Assembly (NCBI GenBank): GCA_009781425.1
Contig: WQYC01000006.1
Coordinates: 7,796-71,795 of the forward strand
Length of the DNA: 64,000 bases
Reading direction: 5' to 3'
DNA from: Oscillospiraceae bacterium
GTDB lineage: Bacteria; Bacillota; Clostridia; Oscillospirales; Ruminococcaceae
A program made the translations under genes and the position numbers. Positions 41,697-63,766 of the stretch are shown one piece after another. Position 1 is the first letter of the stretch, and each line of letters begins with the position of its first letter. Under the pieces are notes generated by a model. That model was not told the DNA's origin. It did not search any database and saw only the letters and a list, made by a program, of their open reading frames with translations.

Positions 41697-41733
41697 ATAA
41701 AAAAGATTCTTGCAGCTGCAAGAATCTTTTTTT
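41697..41733. terminator. bidirectional rho-independent terminator
   Basis: Perfect palindrome AGATTCTTGCAG/CTGCAAGAATCT flanked by an A-run and a T-run. Confidence 0.8.
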
Positions 41734-41741
41734 GTGAAAAA

Positions 41742-42203
41742 TTAATGCTCGTCGGCTTCCGCTATTGCTTTTGTTTGGTGAACCGTTCCGTGCGCGTGAT
41801 TCGGCGGCGCGTAAATTGAGTATAGTTTAAGCGGCTTGTTGCCTGTGTTTATGAGGTTATGCCAGCTTCCTGCCGGTATGAAAATCGCGCAGTCTTCAAA
41901 GACGGGCTGTTGGAAATTCAAGTAGTCCTTACTGTCGCCCATCTGCGTTAAGCCCTGCCCCGATTCAATCCGCAGAAACTGGTCAACCTGCGGGTGAACC
42001 TCCAAGCCGATGTCTTCGCCGACGGGAATACACATTAAGGTAAGCTGTAAATGCGTTCCCGTCCATAAAACTGTACGGAAAGTATCGTTATGTAATGTCG
42101 CCTTGTTTATATCCGTGATGAAGGGCGCAGGCCCGAAGTCCTGCTTTGCAGACGAGCAGCGGGGCTGCTTCCCGCAATTGTTGTTGTAAAAATTATTCAT
42201 CAT
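41742..42203 (-). CDS. cupin-domain protein
   Basis: 153 aa. Cupin motif 1 variant GLEVHPQVDQFLRIESGQG, motif 2 IPAGSWHNLINTG. Start overlaps the stop of the upstream paralog (ATGATGA). RBS GGGAGG. Confidence 0.8.
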   Translation of the reverse strand: MMNNFYNNNCGKQPRCSSAKQDFGPAPFITDINKATLHNDTFRTVLWTGTHLQLTLMCIPVGEDIGLEVHPQVDQFLRIESGQGLTQMGDSKDYLNFQQPVFEDCAIFIPAGSWHNLINTGNKPLKLYSIYAPPNHAHGTVHQTKAIAEADEH

Positions 42204-42523
42204 GTTCCTCCCTTATATTTTTTTTGGCAGCAGCAGCCGCAAGGCTTAGGCTTCAGAAAATCCTTTGCGAGCTGCATTTTCATTTTGAGCAGAAACTGCA
42301 GGTCAGTGATTTTTTCAATCAGCGAAGCGACGCTGTCGTTCACTGTGATTACTTCGCAGATACTGCTGCATTTATTTGCAAGAACGTATTGAATTTTCTC
42401 GCCCTCGGCGTTTATGATGTGGCTGAGCGCGGTTTCCTCCATAGCGATTGACGTGAGAATTGCGTTCACCGCTTCGTCACGCGTCAGCACTGTTTCCTTG
42501 TCCGGGAATTTCGGCATTGACAT
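42200..42523 (-). CDS. MSMPKFP-family paralog A (107 aa, Cys-rich tail)
   Basis: N-terminus MSMPKFP, then SIAMEETALSHIINAEGEKIQYVL shared with the two plus-strand paralogs. Tail PCGCCCQKKYKGGT. RBS AAAGGAG. Confidence 0.7.
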   Translation of the reverse strand: MSMPKFPDKETVLTRDEAVNAILTSIAMEETALSHIINAEGEKIQYVLANKCSSICEVITVNDSVASLIEKITDLQFLLKMKMQLAKDFLKPKPCGCCCQKKYKGGT

Positions 42524-42650
42524 ATATTTTCGCTCCTTTTATTAATTTACTTTTTATTTTATTCCGCAAGCTTTTTTTATGTGCAGAGCTTGCAGGAACA
42601 CTTTGTCGAGTTTCGCCGTATAATGTAAAAAAATATGGAGGTTAATTACT

Positions 42651-42965
42651 ATGTCAATGCCAAAATTCCCGAATGTCCCGGATTTAGACCTTGAAGATGC
42701 AATCAGTCAGATTATTTCTTCTATCGCAATGGAGGAGCTCGCGCTCAGCCACATCATAAACGCTGAGGGCGAGAAGCTTCAGTATGTTCTCGGAACGCTT
42801 GAAACGCAGAGAGGCGCGGTTCCGATTACCATCACGCTCAAGGATTTATTAAAAATAAACGAAAGCATCAGAGATACGCTCGGAGCTGTTTCGATGAACC
42901 AGATGTTCCTGCTCGGCAAGCTGTCCGCAGCGGTTAACGCCCTGCCAAAACCGAAAAAAGATTAA
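42651..42965 (+). CDS. MSMPKFP-family paralog B (104 aa)
   Basis: MSMPKFP...SIAMEELALSHIINAEGEKLQYVLG...NESIRDTLGAVSMNQMFLLGKLSAAVNAL. RBS GGAGG. Confidence 0.7.
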   Translation: MSMPKFPNVPDLDLEDAISQIISSIAMEELALSHIINAEGEKLQYVLGTLETQRGAVPITITLKDLLKINESIRDTLGAVSMNQMFLLGKLSAAVNALPKPKKD

Positions 42966-42999
42966 AACCAAAGAATATTATTAACGGAGGATAATTATT

Positions 43000-43779
43000 A
43001 TGTCAATGCCTAAATTTCCGGAGCACCCGGATTTTACCCTTGAAGATTCGATAATTCAGATTATTTCTTCCATAGCTATGGAAGAGCTCGCGCTCAGCCA
43101 TGTTTTAAACGCTGAGGGTGAGAAGCTACAGTATGTTCTCGGAACGCTTCAAACGCAAAAGCCCCCGCTCCCGCCTGCTTCAATCGACGATTTACTTGAA
43201 GTGAACGAGAGCATAAGGGAGACGCTTTCTGCGGTTTCCATGAACCAAATGTATCTGCTCGGCAAAATGTCAACAGCTGTTAACGCGCTTTCCGCAAGCG
43301 ATAAAGACGATGATAAAGGCGGCGGCGGTGACGACGGCGGTGACGACGGCAAGCCTAAGCTGTCGCTGATACACGGCGAGGGTCCCTACGACACACGTAT
43401 CGATGAGGGTGACTGGGAGAACAAAAACTTTTCAATGCTGATTAAATACAGACTCGAGCAGGACATAGCCGACCCCGAAATCGTTATATATGAAGAAGGC
43501 GCGGTAAAATTAGAGGATATTCTTAAAACAAATGACTTCAGGGGAATCAGCGTAAGAGCCGAGAATCCCGCGCTGAATCAGTACTTCCGTATTGATATGG
43601 ACAAAACTGATGACCTCTCAATCATTTATAATTATATTCCCGACTTAGATGTTTGGGAAGACGCTCAGCCGGGACTCCCTGTGATTATGGAAACGCTGAT
43701 TTTAAGCAAAGCAGGATACGAAGACGCAAGGATTAAAGTAATTCTGCGTTATAACGGGTCTCTGTTTACAAACGGATAA
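43000..43779 (+). CDS. MSMPKFP-family paralog C (259 aa; paralog domain + G/D linker + extra C-terminal domain)
   Basis: First ~100 aa are roughly 70% identical by eye to paralog B. Then DKDDDKGGGGDDGGDDGKPK and a ~130-aa unique domain. RBS GGAGG. Confidence 0.7.
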   Translation: MSMPKFPEHPDFTLEDSIIQIISSIAMEELALSHVLNAEGEKLQYVLGTLQTQKPPLPPASIDDLLEVNESIRETLSAVSMNQMYLLGKMSTAVNALSASDKDDDKGGGGDDGGDDGKPKLSLIHGEGPYDTRIDEGDWENKNFSMLIKYRLEQDIADPEIVIYEEGAVKLEDILKTNDFRGISVRAENPALNQYFRIDMDKTDDLSIIYNYIPDLDVWEDAQPGLPVIMETLILSKAGYEDARIKVILRYNGSLFTNG

Positions 43780-43798
43780 AAAACAGGAGGAAAATATT

Positions 43799-45067
43799 AT
43801 GGCGAAAGCTGATATTAATAAAATCTTGACACAACCGAATAATTACCGCGTTGTAGTTAAGGATAGAATCGCTGAAATCACAGGCGGAAACCTCTTCGAC
43901 TGTGAAAGCAGTAATCCTGCAATAGCTTCCGTTAGCATTACAGGCGGGAGCGCGAGAGTTACGGGTAAAAAGGCGGGAACTGCCGCTATAGCTCTCGGGA
44001 GCAACCGCGGAATCGTCACGGTATATAATTATCAGGTCAGCGACCCTGACCTGATAAAAGAATATACTTTAAAGCAAGGCGGCGAGGTTCTTTTCGGCGA
44101 CGTCGGGGAAACTAAAGCGAGTCCTGTAAGCGTCCTTCCCGCTTCGGCGTATAATACAATCGCGTGGGAATCGCTCGACACAGACATCGTAACAGCCGCG
44201 CAAAACGGAAATATAACCGCAACAGGAAAAGGCTCTGCGATAGTTTTAGGGAGGTTCACAGATACCTGGGGTGTTGAAAGAGATGTTCATATTTTAGCGA
44301 CTGCGGGCGAATGTAAATACGACTGTCCCGATTGTGACGGCGGCGGAGATGAAGACAAGCCGATTTCTGATAAGCCCGACGCGTCGGACGGCGATAAGCT
44401 TGACACCGCGCACACAGGCGACTCCGAGGACTGGTTTGAAATTGCGAGAAACGGCGATTATTCCTTAATCATGCGCTCAAAGTTTATCAGCACCTATGAC
44501 GGGCATTACGACGACCCTGCGTGGCAGAACACCGACTACGGCACTACGAATGTCTACAGGGATTCAAGAGTTCGCAGAGCTATAAACGCATGGTGGAACG
44601 GAACCGCTCCGGGCGTAGCCGATAAGCTTCCCGCCGGCGCAAGAGTGCGTCAATTTACAATGCAAAACGATGCAGTAAATGTTCTCGGCACAGGTGACAG
44701 GGATTCGGGAGGACTCGAAAACGGCTTCAGCAAGCCGAGCCGCACAAGTATTCCGTCAGGCTCGGAGGACGTCGCGTTTGCACTCAGCTTCACCGAAGCG
44801 GCGAATTTCATTTCAAAAAGCTATTCCACAAACGGAACAGGCGCGACACAAAACAGCAATACGATTGCTGTCAGAAACTTTGAAAAGTTGATTATGCCTG
44901 CAGATAAGCCCTACGGCTTTTGGCTTCGCACACCGAGCGAAACCGTTTCGGCGGGGGGAGCGGTTGACTTAACAGGCAGAGCGTTCCAGTTCCATATATC
45001 CTCGGCAAACGAACAAGGGCTTGTATACCCCGCATTATGGGTGAAGACAGCGATTTTCAACTTTTAA
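43799..45067 (+). CDS. protein with two Big_2-like Ig domains, a Cys cluster and a C-terminal FWLRTP-type domain; no signal peptide
   Basis: 422 aa. Big_2-like segments SSNPAIASVSITGGSARVTGKKAGTAAI and SLDTDIVTAAQNGNITATGKGSAIV. Cys cluster CKYDCPDC. The C-terminal domain is reminiscent of DUF6273 (unverified). RBS AGGAGG. Confidence 0.65.
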   Translation: MAKADINKILTQPNNYRVVVKDRIAEITGGNLFDCESSNPAIASVSITGGSARVTGKKAGTAAIALGSNRGIVTVYNYQVSDPDLIKEYTLKQGGEVLFGDVGETKASPVSVLPASAYNTIAWESLDTDIVTAAQNGNITATGKGSAIVLGRFTDTWGVERDVHILATAGECKYDCPDCDGGGDEDKPISDKPDASDGDKLDTAHTGDSEDWFEIARNGDYSLIMRSKFISTYDGHYDDPAWQNTDYGTTNVYRDSRVRRAINAWWNGTAPGVADKLPAGARVRQFTMQNDAVNVLGTGDRDSGGLENGFSKPSRTSIPSGSEDVAFALSFTEAANFISKSYSTNGTGATQNSNTIAVRNFEKLIMPADKPYGFWLRTPSETVSAGGAVDLTGRAFQFHISSANEQGLVYPALWVKTAIFNF

Positions 45068-45104
45068 TTTTCAGTTCAACTAACCCTTCAAGCCGAAGGG
45101 TTAG

Positions 45105-45133
45105 TTGACGTTTTGAGGGAAATATGCTATAAT
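45105..45133 (+). promoter_or_regulatory. sigma-A promoter of the antiporter gene (probable leaderless mRNA)
   Basis: TTGACG (45105-45110), 17-nt spacer, TATAAT (45128-45133). The ATG at 45140 is only 6 nt beyond the -10 box, with no SD sequence. Confidence 0.55.
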
Positions 45134-55741: not shown

Positions 55742-58700
55742 TTAATTTCTTATGAACGCTTTTCTTCTGCGCTTTTTGAACAGCAGAACCGGCAGAAGCG
55801 CCGTAACAGCTAATGCTATATTTATTCCCGCGCTTGTTCTCGGGTTTATGTCTTCGCCCGGCGCAAGCGGTATTAAATTCGCCATGATGTCATATTCCTC
55901 CAGCGTCATATCTAACGGGAGAATAATATATCCCTGTCTAAGTCCTGCGCTGTTGTAAACATAAAGCACGCCGTCCTCGCCCATGACGATAGTGTAGCCT
56001 TCGGGCAGCTGTGATGAATAGAAAACCGTGCCTGCGGGAGCGTTATGCTCGTTTATCCCTTGCGGCTGTGAATTGCTTCCTGTTCCCGAATTATTCGGTT
56101 GCTCGGGTTCAGGCTCAGGTTCGGGTTCAGGAAGCGGGTCGGGAGGACGATTGTTTTGGTTTTGCCCTTGGTTGTTATTATCTTCGCCTTGGTCATTATT
56201 ATTTCCGCTTCCGCCACCGGGTCTGCGGGTGTTATTCGGTGCGGGGATTAATGCGAACTCAACGATTATATCATAATCAGCCGCAATGCTTTCAAACACA
56301 AACTCGCCGTGTTCTATAATTGCTTCGAGAATGTCGCTGATTATATCCTCGTCAAGCTCGTCGCCGCCTGCCGAAACTGCAATCGACTCGATTTTAGAGC
56401 CGCTGTCCGGTGCGACCTCGAGCGTGAAGTCTGCGCCATGCTCGGCACTTGCAGGTGCGGTAACAGTTCCTGTGCCGTCGCCGATTGTGTCAGTTGTAAT
56501 TACATAGCTGATTTTTCTGAAAACAGCTTCGACGAGGGTGTTGTCGGTGATTATAGCTTCAAGCTCGAAGCCGCTGACCTCTGCGGTTTTGTCAACGCCG
56601 TTAACGGCTATCGAAACAAATTCATAGAACTGCGCCGCGTTCGGCTCGATTGTAATTTTTATGACCTCGTTGTAATTCGCTGTCGCCGCGCTTGCGGTTG
56701 TTGTTCCGCCGTCGTCGGTTTCGGTGCTTCCGATGAATGATTTAACAGCGATATTATAATCAATCAAGTCAAAAGTAAATTCAACTGTTTGGTCTTCCGT
56801 GATGTTTGTAAGTGTGAGCTCGCTTGCGGCTTCGACCGTTGTTCCGTTAACGGAAACCGCGCTTACGTAATAGCCCGTGTCAGCAGTTGCACTAATTACG
56901 GAAGAACCGCCGTTAAGAACGATTGCGGGTTCTGCCGAGGCGGTGCCGCCTGTGTCGTCTGTTACGATTACGCTGATATTATGCTTTCTCGTGAAGGTAA
57001 CTATTACGTCCGTGTCGGCTGTGATTGAATTGAGAGTGTATGAATTTGCACTCCGCAGTGCAATAAGTGCGAACGAGTTCGCAGTTCCGTTAATTGTGAC
57101 TGCGGTTATTTCGTAGTCGGCTTCGGTGGTTGTTGTGATTGTCGCGTTGTTGCCGTGCGTTACGGCTTGAGCTTCGGGGAGTGCCGTGCCGCCGTCGTCT
57201 GTAATGCCGCTTGTGCCGTTGATTGTTACTGCTTCCGCTGTTACTGTGTAGGTTCTGAGCTTAAAGGTCACGTGAATAATCGTGTCTTCTATCACGATAT
57301 AATCGCCCGCAAGAAGAATTGCAAGCTCGTCGGAATCCGCGTCATCGCCGTTAATTGTGACCTCGTTTATTTCATAGCCGTCGCTCGTATTCGGGGTTAT
57401 GATTACCGCAGGAGCGTTCGCGCCGTGGAAGACGGAAGCGGGGCTTGTTGCGCTGTTTGCAAACGCAATCGTGCCGTTTGCACCCGAGGTAATGGTAACG
57501 TCATAGCTGATTAAACGGAAGAAAACTTTAATATGCGTGTCGTCGGTGATTGTGACGTCAAGCTCTACGCCGTTAACCTCGGCGGTTTTGTCAACGCCGT
57601 CTACGGTAATGGAAGCGAGTTCATAAAAGCCTGCTGTATTCGGCTGGATTGTAACCTTTACAACATCGCCGATATTCGCGTTCACCGCGCTTAGTGTTGC
57701 TGTTCCGCCGTCGGTGGTTTTATCGTCGCCGATAAAGGCTTCGACGAAAACTTCGTAATTGATGAAGCCGAAGGTAATTTCAATCGTTTGGTCTTCTGTA
57801 ATATTTTCAAGTGAAAACCCGTCCGCGCTCTGCGCCGCGGCTCTGAACTGAGTGAACGTCACGGGAGTATCATAGTTCAGTTGTACGCCGTTTATTGAAG
57901 CCGCGCTGATATGATTTCCCGCGTTCGGGACTGCTTTAATGACAGAAGCTCCGCCGTAGATTGTGCTTACGGGCGTTGCCGTTGCCGTGCCGCCTGTGCC
58001 GGCTGCGCCGTCTTTTATGATTACTTCTACATTGTAAGCTATATTCTCGAACTCAACCATAATCGTGCGGTCAGAAACTATTGCTTCCGGAATTGTCCAG
58101 GTATCATTCGTAGTTAGAACGCTTGAAGCTTCGGTGAATTCCTTAACCTTCATGCCTGCATCGGGAGTTGCGGTGATTATTCCCGCTTGTGCGCCGTGCC
58201 AAACGGTTTGGGTTTCGGGGCTGACTATGCCGCCTGTGCCGTTTACTTCGGCTGTGACTGTATACTGCTTTCTCGTGAAGGTGACATGAACAGCTGTGTC
58301 TTTGGTGATTGAATTTAACTGATACGGATTTCCGCCTTGCAATACCATGAGCGCGGTCGGGCTCGGAAGTCCGTCAACTGTGACCTCGGTTATTATGAAA
58401 GCCGTGTCTGCGGTCGCTGTAATCGTTGCACTGCCGCCGTGCAGCACACTTTGAGGTGCGGACGTTACCGAGCCGCCGTCACCCGTAAAACCGCCGCCGT
58501 TAACCGTATTGAAGGTAGCCGAAATCGCGTACACTCTTGTGAATGTGACAATGATATTCACATTGCTTGTGATTGCAATGACTGTGTACGAAGTGTTGCT
58601 TTTGAGTGCTGTGAGTGCGGCTTCGCTCGCCGCTGTGTCTATTGCAGTTCCTCTTGTTATCACGACAGCGGTGACTTCATGATTGGCAGCTGCGTTTGCT

Positions 58701-61700
58701 GTCAGCGTGTAGCTTGCATTATCCTGCACGATTCGATTAGCAGAAACTGTGCCGCCTGTGCCGCTTGGAATAGTAACCGCAGAAACAGTGACTGTGTGAA
58801 TAATTCTGAAGTTAGCAACGACAGCTGTGTCCGCTGTTATGTTCGTGAGCGTGAAGCTGTGTCCCGCTCTGTTCTCGTCTGTAATCGCGCGCTGTACGTT
58901 GTTAACTGTAATTGAAGCGATTTCGTAGCCGCTGTTCGGTGTTACAATGATTTGCGGAGCGTTCGCGCCGTGAATAACCTCTGCGGAGCTCGTTGCGCTT
59001 CCCGCGAAAGCAATCGCGCCGTTTGCGCCTGCGTCAATCGTGACGTCGTAACGTTTGCGCACATTATGGAAAGTATGCTCGGTGATTAAATCATCATCTT
59101 CATTTCTTATGCCGTCCTCGCTGATAAAAATATCAATCGCTTGCGTCGGCGTCAGTTCATAAGAGTCAGAAACTGCTGTCCTCGTAATCGTATATTCGCC
59201 GAGCGGAAGCGTCACATTAAAGCTGCCGCTCGCAAAAGTGCTGTACGAAACGGGCTCAAAAGTCGTGCCTTTATCGGTTCTCCCCACGATGGTGATTGTC
59301 ATTTCGTTGCTTGTCGCGTTTACAGTAATTCCCGCCGCGTTTTCGCAGGTTCCTTTGATAGTAAAGGGATTCGCGAAGTATTCTAAGGGAACAGAGACTG
59401 TCGTTGTAGGAGCTTGCACCCTAAACGCTACTGTTGTACCTTTGTAAAACGCGGGTACATCATCGTCCTCGGCTACAATCGTATAATTACCGTACAGCAG
59501 CCCGCTTCCGTTAAAATAATTAATTCCGTAGGTCGGGTGAATCGCCGGCGAAATAATCGTGCTTACGCCTGTTGTGCCGTTATACGTAACTATACCTATT
59601 TCATTGCCGTCAGCAAGAAGCTTAAATGTCGCGGTAAGCTTTTGTGCCGTTATTGTTCTGTCGAAAACGTCGAAAGTAACAGCACCTCTGTACTCAATAT
59701 GATTAACCCAGTTTGAGGGGAGCGTGCCTGCTCCGCCTGTTGCGTTTCTGCGGTTTGTCTCTCCCTGTCCTGTTACCGAAACATTGTATTGCTGAAACTG
59801 CCCCGCAGTAGCCGCGGTGATATATCCCGTCGGTCTCCCTGATTCTTCGATTAGATAATCGCCGTACATAACATTTTCAAACGTCATGACGCCGTTCTCA
59901 TTTGTTCTTGTTGGTTGATTAAATAAATTAAATCCGTTAGCGTATTTGAGCGTGAAATTTGCGCCGGTCACTGCGTTTTGCGTCGCGCCGCTGAATCCCG
60001 AAACACCGAAGAACTGATTCCGCTTTGTAAAGCTTATATTCGCCGTCATTACGGTGCTGATATAATCAGCTCCTGAGCTTGCAACTCTGTAGGTTCCCTC
60101 TGCATTAACTGTATGGATTGGATTATAATTGAAGCTGACAGTTCTGCTTGCGGCGGCTGTTGCATTGTATGCCGTGTTTATGTTATAACCCGTCGGCGCG
60201 CTCTTCTGCGTAATAACCGTTCCATGCGTAGCTAACGTTCCCGCAGGAAACGCGCCGCTCGCAGTTGTCGTTACGTCGTAAGCTGCTGCGTTATTTTCGG
60301 CAGCCGTAGCATAGTTCGCGGGAGTGAACGTGAAGGTTACACCCTCGAGTCGATTTATCATAGGCAGAATATTGAACGCAGCTGTGCTGTATATGTTGAC
60401 TAAATTAACGTAATCATGAACAATCGAATGAATCGTAACGTCACCTTCCATGATTATGTATTTCGCGTCAAGGTTTAAAACGCGTGTCGATGGCGAGTTT
60501 GTCATTTGGAAGAAGGGTGTGCTGAGAGGTGTATTGCCGCCGGCGTGGGTCAGAGTTGAATTCGTCAGCCAGTAGCCTTCCGGCGCACCTGCCAATACTA
60601 TCTCGTAGTTTGTATCGTATTTGATTCTGTTGAAGGTCACCTGACCGTTTGTGCCGCTTGTCGCTGTTTGCAGAATATTGCCGAAGCGGTCAAGCAGATG
60701 AAAATCTGCTTTCGATAAGACTTTATCTGTATCTGCGTCCCGCGCGGTGATAACCACTCTGCCGAGCGAGCCGCCTGCGGCGTTCGCGTTGAAGCCCACT
60801 GTAGGCACGCTCCCGGGTGAGCTCGGCGTATTGCTGATGCCCGAAAATGAAACCGTGTTGCTTATAGTGGTGTTTCCCGAGCGGTTAACAAATGTACCGA
60901 AAACAAGGTAATAGGTATCGTTTACAGTCCAGCCCGATGTATTATTAATCGCGTTGGCAAGGCTGAACGTGAATTCGTTTTTTACTCTGTCGTAGGTTAT
61001 ATAGCCGGTTGGGGTTTCGTGAAGCCCTGTTCCGCGGAATAAATTGCCGTCGTTAATATTAAGCCTGTCGCTCGGATTAGTGGGTTCAAGGGCGTTTCTG
61101 TGAAGTTTAATATTATCAATATCAAGCACTAAGGTTGGCGAAAGCTGGTCAACAATGGTTCCCATGGTGCTTAGGTTGAGTGCAGTTTTATGCAGGTTAA
61201 TCGGGACAGTCCAGGTTATATATTCGCGCCCCTCGAGGTCGTTTGCAGAGGATTGCACTGCCGACTTGGTCAGCAGCTCTGACGTGACCTCAACAAAAGC
61301 GTCCTCTTTAAAAGTGGCGATATTATCCCCGCTTAATGTGGCGGTGTTTTTGATTTCGATAGTTTTATCGAGAGAAGTATCGGCAGAATTATAAGCGAAA
61401 AACGCCTGAGGAACTGAGATTTTAGTTACTACGGTGATTGTTTGCGGAGTGGTGAGGACTCTTAATTCAGGCGAGGGATTAACAATTGTTCCCAAATCAA
61501 AGGTAACGGTACCCGTGCCCAAGGTTCCGGTAAGCGGAACGCCGTCAATATCTGCTCTCTCAAAATGCGTTCCGGGGAAAAGCGTGTCGGTGACCTGCGC
61601 GTTTTCGATTCTCGCGCCGATTTCGTTAACTGATATTTTCCATGTTAATTCGTAGTTGCTCGGATTATAAGCGTATGTAATCGGATTTTGCGGGTTTGTA

Positions 61701-63628
61701 TTATCAACATAAGGCACAAAGTCTTTAGTAAGTAAATGCGGAGCTATGCGAATGACGCCGCGCGAGCTTACGGGTTCAATCCCTAAAGGCGCAGTTCCCG
61801 TTCTTCTGTCCGCGTTAAGCGTCACGCGGTTATAATAACTGAAAAGCTCACCCTCAGTACTCCATTCGCTATAATCGTAATTGGTGACTTTTGTAACGAT
61901 TCGGAAGTTGATTTCACCATCAATACTGCCGAAGTCAATTTCTACTCTGTCGCCATTATTAGTATAAGAGGGAATTGGCGTAATCCCCTCGATTCTGACG
62001 AATTCCTGTTCAAACTCAATAAAATCGGTGACGATAACGTTATCTAATGCGGCTTTGTTTTGGTTGAGCGTGACATTCCACGTCAGCTCGCCGTTCGCGG
62101 GGTTAAAGCTGTGACCCTGCTTTGTGATTACGCTGAAGCCCATACCAAAGCCAACGCCGTGCTTTGAACGGGTGTAACCGGGTCCGATACCTCCTGTATA
62201 ATCGTAGTAAAAATCAACATCGTTTAACGCTTCGCCTATGTTTCTGTAAGACGCATTTGACACATCGACAATAGAATCATATGTAACAACAACTTGCTGG
62301 TTGACGTTACCTATTTCGATTTTCATTGTTACGGGATTGCCTTCGCTGTCGTATGTAAATACGGGTGTATGTTCATCTGTGACATCTATTCCGCCGATTG
62401 TGATTTCTACGCTTCCGACGTCGTAATAATGCTCTGCTCCGTCACCCATGGGGCGAAGTGAGTCGTTGATTATAGCATATATCGCGCGGTTATTATTGTT
62501 AGCTGTAACTGTCCAGCTGATTATCCGTTCATTGCCAAGTTGATTTTCTTCAAAAAGTGCTTTTTTGTCAAGCCAGTGCGGCTCAACAGTCACGTCGGCT
62601 TCATCAAAGCTCATAGGAATGGCGGAGGTGCTGCTCTTGCTGTGAAGCTCGGCTCTGTTAAAGAGCGATTCCTCCTCTATATCCTTGTTGCTTGTTATAT
62701 TGAAAACCTCGTCGTTCGGCTCGGATTTATATGTAATTACCGCTGTTTCCCAGCCTGTATCCCATGCGCCGTCGAAGTCGTATGTAAAGCCGTTAGCTGT
62801 TTGTGCAGCTGTTGCGCCGGGTATTTCTGTACCGTCAACGCGTACCTCAAAGCCACCCGCGAATGTATGCGCGCCTTTTGAAGCGGACATAATATCGACG
62901 ACTCTGAGAGCTTCGAGCGGGGAGGGGGAGAATTCGTTGTTTGTGATGGTTATTGTCCAGGTTGCAATGTTTTTATCGCTGTCATATACGCCGCCTTTAC
63001 GTAATCGCGGCAGGGTTTTTGAATTGAAGAGAAGATTTACGTTTTTGAAATCAATCGTAAAGCCGCCGAAATCAAGTCCGTCAAGCTTTTCGCCGCCCTT
63101 AAAAACACTGCTCAAAAGCGTCGCCGTGAAGTAATAGTTCATATAAATACTGCCTGCGAGTATGTATTCTGAAGCAGCCCAGGGTGTGAACACAAACTTA
63201 ATCGCATATCTTCCGCTTCCGCTGTTCTCGGGATATTCAACGACGCTAATATCGGCATAGTCGTCGATTGTCACTCCATAATCATTCAAAGAGTCATGAG
63301 GCGCGAGACCTTGGGGCAGGGGTAGATAATAGGGCGTTTCTCCCACCAAGTCTTCCGGGTGATTCGGAGCTCCCGGAATCATATCAAATTGAAAATGAAT
63401 AATAAAGGCTTCGTCGAGCTCAAGGGGAATACTCGCCGAGTCTGAATTAAATTCTTTTCCGTCGATTTCAAACCATATGCCATCAGAATCAACGGTGTCG
63501 ATTATATCAGGTTTTAATTCATTGATACCTGCCGAAGCGGGCGAAATCGCTTCGGGATATACAAACGCAGTTAAAATGCTGATGCATAAAAACGAAGCTA
63601 AAAGCCTTTTAAACATAGTTTTTTTCAT
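55742..63628 (-). CDS. giant cell-wall-anchored adhesin-like surface protein (2,628 aa)
   Basis: Start set at ATG 63628 after AAGGAG, giving signal peptide MKKTMFKRLLASFLCISILTAFV. Cna-A/Cna-B (SpaA-type prealbumin-fold) modules, then about 12 Ig-like ~78-aa repeats. PEPEPEPEPE linker. C-terminal NPRTS + hydrophobic helix + KKRRRK tail. Confidence 0.85.
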   Translation of the reverse strand: MKKTMFKRLLASFLCISILTAFVYPEAISPASAGINELKPDIIDTVDSDGIWFEIDGKEFNSDSASIPLELDEAFIIHFQFDMIPGAPNHPEDLVGETPYYLPLPQGLAPHDSLNDYGVTIDDYADISVVEYPENSGSGRYAIKFVFTPWAASEYILAGSIYMNYYFTATLLSSVFKGGEKLDGLDFGGFTIDFKNVNLLFNSKTLPRLRKGGVYDSDKNIATWTITITNNEFSPSPLEALRVVDIMSASKGAHTFAGGFEVRVDGTEIPGATAAQTANGFTYDFDGAWDTGWETAVITYKSEPNDEVFNITSNKDIEEESLFNRAELHSKSSTSAIPMSFDEADVTVEPHWLDKKALFEENQLGNERIISWTVTANNNNRAIYAIINDSLRPMGDGAEHYYDVGSVEITIGGIDVTDEHTPVFTYDSEGNPVTMKIEIGNVNQQVVVTYDSIVDVSNASYRNIGEALNDVDFYYDYTGGIGPGYTRSKHGVGFGMGFSVITKQGHSFNPANGELTWNVTLNQNKAALDNVIVTDFIEFEQEFVRIEGITPIPSYTNNGDRVEIDFGSIDGEINFRIVTKVTNYDYSEWSTEGELFSYYNRVTLNADRRTGTAPLGIEPVSSRGVIRIAPHLLTKDFVPYVDNTNPQNPITYAYNPSNYELTWKISVNEIGARIENAQVTDTLFPGTHFERADIDGVPLTGTLGTGTVTFDLGTIVNPSPELRVLTTPQTITVVTKISVPQAFFAYNSADTSLDKTIEIKNTATLSGDNIATFKEDAFVEVTSELLTKSAVQSSANDLEGREYITWTVPINLHKTALNLSTMGTIVDQLSPTLVLDIDNIKLHRNALEPTNPSDRLNINDGNLFRGTGLHETPTGYITYDRVKNEFTFSLANAINNTSGWTVNDTYYLVFGTFVNRSGNTTISNTVSFSGISNTPSSPGSVPTVGFNANAAGGSLGRVVITARDADTDKVLSKADFHLLDRFGNILQTATSGTNGQVTFNRIKYDTNYEIVLAGAPEGYWLTNSTLTHAGGNTPLSTPFFQMTNSPSTRVLNLDAKYIIMEGDVTIHSIVHDYVNLVNIYSTAAFNILPMINRLEGVTFTFTPANYATAAENNAAAYDVTTTASGAFPAGTLATHGTVITQKSAPTGYNINTAYNATAAASRTVSFNYNPIHTVNAEGTYRVASSGADYISTVMTANISFTKRNQFFGVSGFSGATQNAVTGANFTLKYANGFNLFNQPTRTNENGVMTFENVMYGDYLIEESGRPTGYITAATAGQFQQYNVSVTGQGETNRRNATGGAGTLPSNWVNHIEYRGAVTFDVFDRTITAQKLTATFKLLADGNEIGIVTYNGTTGVSTIISPAIHPTYGINYFNGSGLLYGNYTIVAEDDDVPAFYKGTTVAFRVQAPTTTVSVPLEYFANPFTIKGTCENAAGITVNATSNEMTITIVGRTDKGTTFEPVSYSTFASGSFNVTLPLGEYTITRTAVSDSYELTPTQAIDIFISEDGIRNEDDDLITEHTFHNVRKRYDVTIDAGANGAIAFAGSATSSAEVIHGANAPQIIVTPNSGYEIASITVNNVQRAITDENRAGHSFTLTNITADTAVVANFRIIHTVTVSAVTIPSGTGGTVSANRIVQDNASYTLTANAAANHEVTAVVITRGTAIDTAASEAALTALKSNTSYTVIAITSNVNIIVTFTRVYAISATFNTVNGGGFTGDGGSVTSAPQSVLHGGSATITATADTAFIITEVTVDGLPSPTALMVLQGGNPYQLNSITKDTAVHVTFTRKQYTVTAEVNGTGGIVSPETQTVWHGAQAGIITATPDAGMKVKEFTEASSVLTTNDTWTIPEAIVSDRTIMVEFENIAYNVEVIIKDGAAGTGGTATATPVSTIYGGASVIKAVPNAGNHISAASINGVQLNYDTPVTFTQFRAAAQSADGFSLENITEDQTIEITFGFINYEVFVEAFIGDDKTTDGGTATLSAVNANIGDVVKVTIQPNTAGFYELASITVDGVDKTAEVNGVELDVTITDDTHIKVFFRLISYDVTITSGANGTIAFANSATSPASVFHGANAPAVIITPNTSDGYEINEVTINGDDADSDELAILLAGDYIVIEDTIIHVTFKLRTYTVTAEAVTINGTSGITDDGGTALPEAQAVTHGNNATITTTTEADYEITAVTINGTANSFALIALRSANSYTLNSITADTDVIVTFTRKHNISVIVTDDTGGTASAEPAIVLNGGSSVISATADTGYYVSAVSVNGTTVEAASELTLTNITEDQTVEFTFDLIDYNIAVKSFIGSTETDDGGTTTASAATANYNEVIKITIEPNAAQFYEFVSIAVNGVDKTAEVSGFELEAIITDNTLVEAVFRKISYVITTDTIGDGTGTVTAPASAEHGADFTLEVAPDSGSKIESIAVSAGGDELDEDIISDILEAIIEHGEFVFESIAADYDIIVEFALIPAPNNTRRPGGGSGNNNDQGEDNNNQGQNQNNRPPDPLPEPEPEPEPEQPNNSGTGSNSQPQGINEHNAPAGTVFYSSQLPEGYTIVMGEDGVLYVYNSAGLRQGYIILPLDMTLEEYDIMANLIPLAPGEDINPRTSAGINIALAVTALLPVLLFKKRRRKAFIRN

Positions 63629-63737
63629 GGCAGACTCCTTATAGCATATAATTATAATTTCAAAGTATAAAGCGTAAACTATATTGTAGCACAGAGAGCG
63701 TGCCATATGTGTGCCACTTGATTCGCTCTGCAAACAC

Positions 63738-63766
63738 AAAAAAAGCGCAGTCATTTAAGACTGCGC
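63738..63766 (-). terminator. rho-independent terminator of spoVT
   Basis: GCGCAGTC-ATTTAA-GACTGCGC stem followed (minus strand) by TTTTTTT. Confidence 0.7.

Follow-up and report, generated by a model that had tools for sequence, protein, structure and literature searches.

The window analysed here is a 64,000-nucleotide (nt) stretch of contig WQYC01000006.1 from the metagenome-assembled genome (MAG) of an uncultured Oscillospiraceae bacterium (NCBI locus tags FWD48_032xx); all positions are counted within it. Between positions 41742 and 45067 it carries a divergent cluster of five genes, which encode three paralogs sharing a domain of about 100 amino acids (aa), designated A, B and C, a cupin, and a 422-aa protein with immunoglobulin (Ig)-like domains. 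Sequence homology identifies A, B and C as subunits of the A-ENA family that have no signal peptide. Together with the roles that we propose for its parts, the cluster is probably a clostridial form of the A-ENA ('sporesilk') system of spore appendages.

The A-ENA family was described by Sleutel, Sogues and Remaut (Nat Commun 2026, PMC13111695) in Bacillus thuringiensis israelensis (Bti). The 101-aa protein folds into an alpha-helical hairpin and has an N-terminal "lock" of about 13 residues. Its subunits stack into a two-protofilament cross-alpha fibre around the spores, in which five kinds of autocatalytic intermolecular isopeptide bond (IPB) are formed (PMC13111695). In E. coli the protein self-assembles and cross-links autocatalytically with no helper protein (PMC13111695). 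The same authors report homologues in Clostridia and Bacillales, clusters of paralogs, and fusions to collagen/C1q, SdrD_B/OmcB and 4Fe-4S passengers, and they call the extension of A-ENA to other taxa speculative.

The three paralogs as A-ENA subunits

All five open reading frames (ORFs) drawn by a first-pass annotation of this DNA were confirmed, and so was its finding that three of the products share a domain of about 100 aa. Paralog A (42200-42523, minus strand, 107 aa) belongs to a Cys-rich class of A-ENA-family subunits and has the loop KCxxxCEV and the C-terminal tail CGCCC. Paralog B (42651-42965, plus strand, 104 aa) is a single-domain subunit. Paralog C (43000-43779, plus strand, 259 aa) consists of an A-ENA domain (aa 1-100), a linker rich in acidic residues and Gly (aa 101-118), and an extra domain of about 140 aa, here called Cpass (aa 119-259, positions 43354-43776).

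In a search of PDB sequences each paralog matched chain A of 9ihh ("Ex vivo spore-silk A-ENA fibers"): A with an E-value of 4.7e-15 over residues 1-91, B with 5.1e-14 over residues 1-96, and C with 8.9e-14 over residues 1-100. The alignments to this chain run end to end, with one indel per paralog, located in the hairpin loop. The common domain is 40-44% identical to Bti A-ENA, and none of the three paralogs deviates at the lock residues M1, M3, P4 and P7. A database protein that is 100% identical to B (P0001) carries the precomputed Pfam annotation PF26595.1 (A_ENA), which is also given to orthologues of A, B and C at three related loci (L001, L004 and L006). When we scanned the three paralogs against Pfam and NCBIfam, nothing beyond noise came up, the Pfam copy used being older than PF26595. 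The first-pass annotation had held that the shared helical domain could not be placed in any characterised family and that the module was undescribed. Neither statement survives the searches, which led to a characterised spore-fibre family with a cryoEM structure (PDB 9ihh), a Pfam entry (PF26595) and the 2026 paper that describes it as A-ENA.

The isopeptide chemistry divides into a kept and a lost part. The residues of IPB1 (N-terminus to Q44, catalyst E41; Bti numbering here and below), IPB2 (K42 to N64, catalyst E39) and IPB3 (K84 to E29, catalyst E28) are all present in A, B and C. Among the 195 unique A_ENA domains drawn from the window and from 87 other loci (L001-L087), the residues E28, E29, E39, E41, K42, Q44, N64 and K84 are 96-100% conserved. 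By residue conservation, IPB1-3, which are the axial bonds, are the core of the family.

Residue 2, the predicted donor of IPB1, is Ser in all three paralogs. A Ser at this position is compatible with removal of the Met. The choice of the start of A matters for the same reason, as it decides what residue 2 is. In the NCBI annotation A begins at Met3, which gives 105 aa, and the cupin begins at its second Met, which gives 152 aa; we favour the 107-aa start of A because the N-terminus MSMPKFP is invariant across paralogs and orthologues.

Several features of the paralogs speak against a plain transfer of the Bti model. The donor of IPB4 (K77 to E78) is lost, position 77 being N in B and C and L in A, and position 78 is Q in all three. 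The pair of IPB5 (K76 to Q82, catalyst E86) is absent in B and C, which have M76 and L82. Paralog A has D76 and K82, i.e., an IPB5-type pair of reversed polarity. Given the missing IPB4 and IPB5 in B and C, the geometry of the fibre may differ from that of the solved one. The alpha-hairpin fold of A, B and C is itself predicted from homology.

These losses lower the likeness of mechanism and not the case for family membership, because IPB4 and IPB5 are not universal in the family. The reversed IPB5 polarity (Q, E, D or N at 76 and K at 82) occurs in 84 of the 195 domains, and the combination of M76 and L82 is the mark of a small subclade, to which the plus-arm subunits of such modules belong. 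IPB5 is the sole inter-protofilament bond in the Bti fibre (PMC13111695). Since B and C have no such pair, a fibre made of them may be a single protofilament, or a pair of protofilaments without that covalent bond. Q is found at position 78 in 189 of the 195 domains, the Bti donor K77 being lost; this may be a sign that the bonds of clostridial fibres are networked differently.

The conserved unit and its Ig-like protein

We collected 80 genome loci via the A_ENA domain, together with several metagenomic contigs, and scanned them in six frames with profiles for each part of the cluster. At least 569 A_ENA stretches were confirmed in the genome scan. Bacillota-type names are borne by 78 of the 80 loci (one locus is titled 'Atopobium sp.' MAG), and many of the genera are ones that we take to be spore formers. 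Among the carriers of A_ENA clusters are the cultured strains Anaerotaenia torta DSM 100431 and Anaerosporobacter mobilis DSM 15930. A_ENA genes occur in clusters of two to eight, commonly with one gene divergent from the others. Among the tails of 199 A_ENA ORFs, 127 are collagen-like and 48 are of other kinds, while 24 ORFs are single-domain.

The layout of the window, in which an A-type gene on the minus strand faces a B-type gene, an A_ENA-Cpass gene and a gene for an Ig-like protein of the same kind, recurs at L001 (a Lachnospiraceae MAG), L004, L006 (where there is no separate B) and L008 (an Oscillospiraceae MAG). The conserved unit is A on one arm and B, C and the Ig-like protein on the other. 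The divergently placed A-type subunit forms a separate orthologue group. In four of these five loci its loop is short and contains KCxxxCEV; its tail is variable, being Cys-rich in four of the five and having one Cys in L008.

Other architectures were seen in the same collection. In clusters of the Oscillibacter type, a conserved Cys-bearing domain of about 165-200 aa, which ends in ...LSLVLDAKxxLCVExAxMDVxEL, is fused to the divergent A_ENA gene (e.g., the minus-arm genes L024:4748-5719, L039:6916-7839, L046:6906-7781 and L079:6906-7838); the position of this gene matches that of the Cys-rich paralog A. At L067:7983-14765 an A_ENA domain stands at the head of a 2261-aa ORF, and L018:1874-10079 holds eight A_ENA fusion genes in succession.

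The 422-aa protein (43799-45067, plus strand) comprises two Ig-like Big_2 domains (aa 1-170), a disordered linker rich in Cys and acidic residues (aa 171-194, positions 44309-44380), and a C-terminal head (aa 195-422) with a predicted DUF6273 fold. Two stretches match Big_2 (PF02368) with an E-value of 3.6e-9 and 36.9 bits against a cut-off of 22.8. The AlphaFold2 model of the full protein, built with 74 homologues, has a mean predicted local distance difference test score (pLDDT) of 93.8 and shows two Ig-like sandwiches, a disordered stretch at residues 174-183 (CKYDCPDC) and a compact alpha/beta head; the head modelled alone reaches 96.1. Pfam and the model thus bear out the two Big_2-like domains that had been proposed along with the CKYDCPDC cluster. 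The C-terminal domain, earlier named only by its FWLRTP motif, is also present and can now be placed as DUF6273-like, so that the protein is modelled as an Ig stalk with a DUF6273-fold head.

We treat the head as a divergent relative of DUF6273 on the following grounds. The DUF6273 profile (PF19789) scores 16.6 bits on the head (E 0.0074), which is below the cut-off of 23.5, and it matches eight of the 74 homologues of the 422-aa protein with E-values down to 2e-15. A Foldseek search with the whole model gave Ig-domain hits only (adhesins and S-layer proteins). The head, searched against a library of predicted viral structures, matched DUF6273 phage proteins with E-values from 3.5e-6 to 6e-4 and template modelling scores of 0.42-0.50. 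On the other side of the scale, the best E-value of a Foldseek search of the head against the PDB was 1.1, so the likeness of DUF6273 to C-type lectins was not reproduced, and a profile search of PDB sequences gave nothing for the head. DUF6273 has been described as the C-type-lectin-like ligand-binding domain of phage receptor-binding proteins and of targets of diversity-generating retroelements (DGRs), called 'tentaclins' (PMC10743442), and the IgA protease ThomasA is reported to have it at its N-terminus (PMC12402451).

A Kyte-Doolittle scan of all five proteins of the cluster found no transmembrane or signal-like segment (highest 19-residue mean 1.45), as the first-pass annotation had also stated. 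In particular, no signal peptide is seen in the Ig-like protein of the window, nor, by eye, in its orthologues at L001, L004, L006 and L008. The long-form homologues P0145, P0147 and P0156 do bear signal peptides. The puzzle of an Ig-like protein without a signal peptide had been well spotted: homologues encoded next to SipW and sortase genes carry one, and those linked to A-ENA genes do not.

Cpass had no match in profile searches of the PDB and Pfam. It is rare: a word-index homologue search returned a single protein, and an exhaustive search of representatives found 47 representative clusters among 1.84 billion proteins. In all 43 single-stretch matches Cpass is C-terminal, preceded either by an A_ENA domain without a signal peptide or by a signal peptide and Big_2 repeats. 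A fibre subunit ending in Cpass lies directly upstream of an Ig-DUF6273 protein in eight of eight loci, five of the A_ENA type and three SipW/BsaA-like with signal peptides, a small sample that comes mostly from related gut metagenomes.

The latter loci are those of the long-form Ig proteins. The P0145, P0147 and P0156 clusters contain a SipW-type signal peptidase, a Cna_B protein and a class B sortase, and directly upstream of the Ig protein they encode a 517-aa protein composed of a BsaA-family domain, Big_2 and Cpass. The BsaA match (TIGR04090, SipW-dependent matrix protein) has an E-value of 4e-13 and 49.6 bits against an NCBIfam cut-off of 60. Clusters of this make-up (SipW-type peptidase, Cna_B, BsaA-like/Big_2/Cpass, Ig-DUF6273 and class B sortase), as at L168:1555-4773 and L170:1734-4878, may represent an undescribed vegetative fibre system of gut Clostridia that combines SipW-dependent and sortase components.

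From this gene order we infer that Cpass would be a docking adaptor and the Ig-DUF6273 protein an adhesin acting in trans; that the basis is gene order over eight loci counts against the proposal. We suggest tentatively, at somewhat less than even confidence, that Cpass and the Big_2-DUF6273 protein form a portable cassette, attached to a fibre at its end or along its side by Cys links or non-covalently, which has been grafted both onto SipW/BsaA-type fibres of growing cells and onto A-ENA spore fibres. The 422-aa protein itself probably supplies a detachable adhesive tip of the fibre. If the A-ENA-linked protein is an adhesin acting in trans, its missing signal peptide would reflect release by lysis of the mother cell. 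Cys clusters occur in the linkers of the short-form Ig proteins (CKYDCPDC, CQYDC and CKCDC), and at the same loci Cys is found in the A-type tails (42200-42250 in the window). A disulfide coupling between the linker of the Ig-like protein and the A-type tail is possible.

The 422-aa protein could instead be an independent protein of the spore coat or matrix that shares the operon and stays off the fibre, with Cpass serving another role. That it has no A_ENA domain of its own would fit such a protein. However, the same head is covalently fused to A_ENA in at least 11 other proteins or loci (P0140, P0158, P0171, P0180-183, P0190, L010, L012 and L065), where there is no Cpass; in L013 it is the Big_2 pair that is joined to A_ENA; and the order of a Cpass subunit followed by the Ig protein is kept on two unrelated scaffolds in all eight loci. 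We therefore consider an off-fibre protein unlikely and retain the fibre-bound adhesin.

The cupin, the promoters and the surroundings of the cluster

The cupin gene (41742-42203, minus strand, 153 aa) follows paralog A. The stop codon of A and the start of the cupin are joined by an ATGA overlap, and a Shine-Dalgarno sequence, AAGGGAGG, lies within the last codons of A, in agreement with the translational coupling suggested earlier. The minus arm is closed by a bidirectional intrinsic terminator at 41697-41733, also as first described, with a perfect 14-bp stem (GATTCTTGCAGCTGCAAGAATC), runs of A6 and T7 on either side and a folding energy of -17.9 kcal/mol. The cupin and A are probably co-transcribed here. 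The protein matches Cupin_2 (PF07883; E 1.4e-12, 47.6 bits against a cut-off of 27.2) and, over residues 21-152, PDB 2oa2 (BH2720 of Bacillus halodurans, E 1.5e-58), a structural-genomics cupin with no assigned function, to which the window cupin adds an N/Y/C-rich N-terminal tail of about 20 residues.

The first-pass annotation counted the cupin as part of a five-gene unit, and in such a unit it could act on the fibre or coat as a modifying or cross-linking enzyme. Co-transcription with A is implied by the ATGA overlap and by the terminator common to the two genes. The upstream regions of the cupin family also hold mother-cell-type motifs: among 59 distinct regions, the element CATAWAAT is found in 34 (background 3.7%) and the full AC-N16-17-CATANNNTA in 16 (background 1.5%). 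This suggests that the BH2720-like cupin family belongs to a mother-cell sporulation regulon in its own right. As to membership of the unit, the paralogs and the Ig-like protein recur together, but the cupin does not recur with them. It is absent from all 87 other A_ENA loci in the six-frame profile scan, including the closest orthologous modules (L004, L006, L001 and L008). Conversely, 80 metagenomic loci with cupins 62-81% identical to it (L088-L167), whose gene neighbourhoods vary, contain neither A_ENA nor Cpass nor an Ig gene within a distance of 5 kb. In addition, Bti A-ENA assembles and cross-links in E. coli without a helper (PMC13111695). On these counts (0/87 and 0/80) the cupin was rejected as a module component, and a single unit of five genes with a fibre-modifying cupin is improbable. 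The cupin would rather be a separately mother-cell-regulated family that landed in the A operon in this genome.

The divergent intergenic region is 127 bp long, and two blocks in it are conserved among the window, L004, L001 and L006. The block of the A-cupin arm (42555-42582, minus strand) is a SigK-like promoter motif, ACATAAAAAAAGCTTGCGGAATAAAATA, of the form AC-N17-AATAnnnTA, which starts 59 nt before the ATG of A. It reads TGCACA...AATAAAATA, i.e., AC-N17-AATAAAATA, and the L001 orthologue has a strict AC-N16-CATAAAATA at the same offset. In Bti a predicted SigK site, CACCTTTGGAATAGCTGTTACATATAATA, lies upstream of a-ena, and a reporter of this promoter is active in sporulating cells only (PMC13111695). 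The minus-arm motif and the Bti site share their architecture. The block of the B-C-Ig arm (42595-42627, plus strand), GGAAC..TTTGTCGA..N9..TATAATGTA, is promoter-like and invariant in the four loci. A promoter scan in the plus-arm orientation found no sigma-70-type promoter. A reading of this block as a promoter of the extracytoplasmic function type (GAAC-N16-CGTA) was dropped, the CGTA not being conserved in the orthologues.

Across the collection, 27 of 198 A_ENA gene starts are preceded by the strict SigK-like motif at a distance of up to 110 nt, and 0.44% of random windows of that length contain it, which makes an enrichment of about 30-fold; many of the 198 starts are operon-internal. 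Three details of the window's own motifs pull the other way: the minus-arm motif reads AATA and not CATA; the plus-arm block does not fit the SigK pattern that we used (it has TATA and an AC spacing of 17-19); and CATATAAT also holds a -10 hexamer of sigma-A. For the plus arm we infer a sigma factor rather than read it from a motif. Expression of the cluster in the mother cell is likely on the strength of these motifs. The earlier idea of a spore-surface or matrix role was right in substance, being supported by the A-ENA homology together with the SigK-like promoter motifs.

It could still be argued that the A-ENA-like proteins of this lineage make cytoplasmic, vegetative cross-alpha filaments with no link to the spore, and PMC13111695 does term its extension beyond the B. 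cereus group speculative. We find this very improbable, as the genomes show a roughly 30-fold excess of SigK-like motifs ahead of their A_ENA genes, and the related genome loci are nearly all from Bacillota, many of them from presumed spore formers. Besides, a fibre with adhesin-like Ig and DUF6273 domains makes little sense in the cytoplasm unless it is freed by mother-cell lysis.

It is hardly credible that the plus arm is what remains of a tail-fibre or receptor-binding module of a prophage, or that it is a DGR target: DUF6273 and Big_2 do occur widely in the receptor-binding proteins of phages and in DGR targets, but no pair of template and variable repeats exists across the 64-kb window (blastn of the gene against the window, word size 7, no second copy), the immediate flanking genes (an ABC transporter, chemoreceptors and a Na+/H+ exchanger) are not phage genes, and the Ig gene is embedded among A_ENA genes at five independent loci. 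With no repeat in the window, the DGR-target reading of the head was rejected.

The GC content of the cluster (0.44-0.52) is similar to that of the remainder of the window. The hairpin that closes the plus arm (45078-45106, plus strand) is real and strong, with a perfect 13-bp stem and -22.7 kcal/mol; its T tail (ACGTTTTG) is weak and a terminator scan made no call there. The spoVT gene noted at the end of the window is a C-terminal fragment on the minus strand, recognised by TIGR02851 (E 8.6e-6 over its last 48 residues). Adjoining it, at 55742-63754 (minus strand), is a gene whose 2670-aa product resembles a giant surface adhesin and contains SpaA, Collagen_bind and InlB-B-repeat domains.

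Comparison with known fibres and significance

By analogy with B. thuringiensis, the mother cell would produce A, B and C at a late stage of sporulation, using the SigK-like promoters of the 127-bp intergenic region. The subunits would stack into cross-alpha protofilaments and be self-locked by autocatalytic intermolecular isopeptide bonds. In B numbering the predicted bonds are those of the Ser2 alpha-amine with Gln44 (catalyst Glu41), of Lys42 with Asn70 (Glu39) and of Lys90 with Glu29 (Glu28). B would be the bulk fibre subunit and A a Cys-rich subunit that anchors or cross-links via disulfides. C would be a minor subunit whose Cpass is a docking adaptor; the 422-aa protein would bind to Cpass and present its DUF6273-fold, ligand-binding head on the Ig stalk. 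Its role would parallel that proposed for the collagen/C1q 'ruffles' on Bacillus A-ENA.

Among the closest described systems are Bti A-ENA and A-ENA1 (Q8KNV8 and Q8KNV7; PDB 9ihh; PF26595; PMC13111695). The likeness extends over the whole domain, the lock residues and the triads of IPB1-3, and further to the absence of a signal peptide, the several paralogs per small cluster and the SigK-type promoter motif. The window proteins differ from Bti A-ENA in having Ser instead of Gly as residue 2, in the lost IPB4 donor, in the IPB5 pair, absent in B and C and reversed in A, and in the hairpin loop, which has six additional residues in B and C but is shortened in A, where it contains two Cys. Whereas the Bti genes lie on a toxin plasmid, the window cluster is chromosomal in a gut Oscillospiraceae MAG, with no Cry or Cyt toxins nearby. 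The window cluster has no amidase/SPOR gene either; one is present in the orthologous cluster at L008 (9161-10024, plus strand), which recalls the toxin plasmid of B. thuringiensis, where an amidase/SPOR gene separates a-ena from a-ena1.

The A-ENA 'ruffles' (A-ENA with collagen-like and C1q parts; PMC13111695) resemble the present case in that a passenger-bearing minor subunit stands beside single-domain subunits, presumably for decoration or adhesion. Cpass, however, is not among the passengers listed there, and the presumed adhesin of the window is a separate polypeptide without an A-ENA domain. Collagen-like tails are the norm in our sample (127 of 199 A_ENA ORFs), whereas the architecture of the window is found in a handful of loci.

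S-ENA and L-ENA, appendages of the B. cereus group that PMC13111695 also cites, are likewise self-assembling, covalently stabilised mother-cell spore fibres with Cys links and a distinct tip adhesin, in their case collagen-like fibrillae. Their fold is the beta-rich DUF3992 with disulfide cross-links, in contrast to the alpha-hairpin and isopeptides of A-ENA. The SipW-dependent clusters of the BsaA/TasA type (TIGR04090; L168 and L170) share the two-gene cassette, and their Big_2-DUF6273 protein is 42-46% identical over about 55% of the 422-aa protein. Unlike the window proteins, theirs have N-terminal signal peptides and a SipW peptidase, which implies export by living cells, and their scaffold is unrelated to A-ENA. 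The likeness to the DUF6273 of phage receptor-binding proteins and DGR targets (PMC10743442) and of ThomasA (PMC12402451) lies in the fold of the head as compared with predicted phage proteins.

In the literature searched, which is centred on Bacillus, four points appear not to have been described: the Cpass passenger domain, the separate Big_2-DUF6273 partner without an A-ENA domain, the sharing of the cassette with SipW/BsaA-type fibres, and the conservation of IPB1-3 alone with IPB5 often reversed.

So far, A-ENA has been studied in one Bacillus strain, whose spores are glued to toxin crystals by the fibres. Anaerobic gut Clostridia are rich in members of the family, with the at least 569 stretches counted above, and its fibres there bear very different 'business ends'. 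If our reading of the 422-aa protein is true, this would be the first A-ENA fibre decorated in trans by a protein without an A-ENA domain. Since A-ENA self-assembles recombinantly, the natural pair of adaptor and adhesin would then be ready-made for functionalising very stable nanofibres. If the cassette is indeed portable, spores of gut Clostridia would share ligand specificity with vegetative fibres, and a trans-docking adhesin, if true, would point to the means by which uncultured anaerobes of the gut have their spores adhere to particles or to the surfaces of a host.

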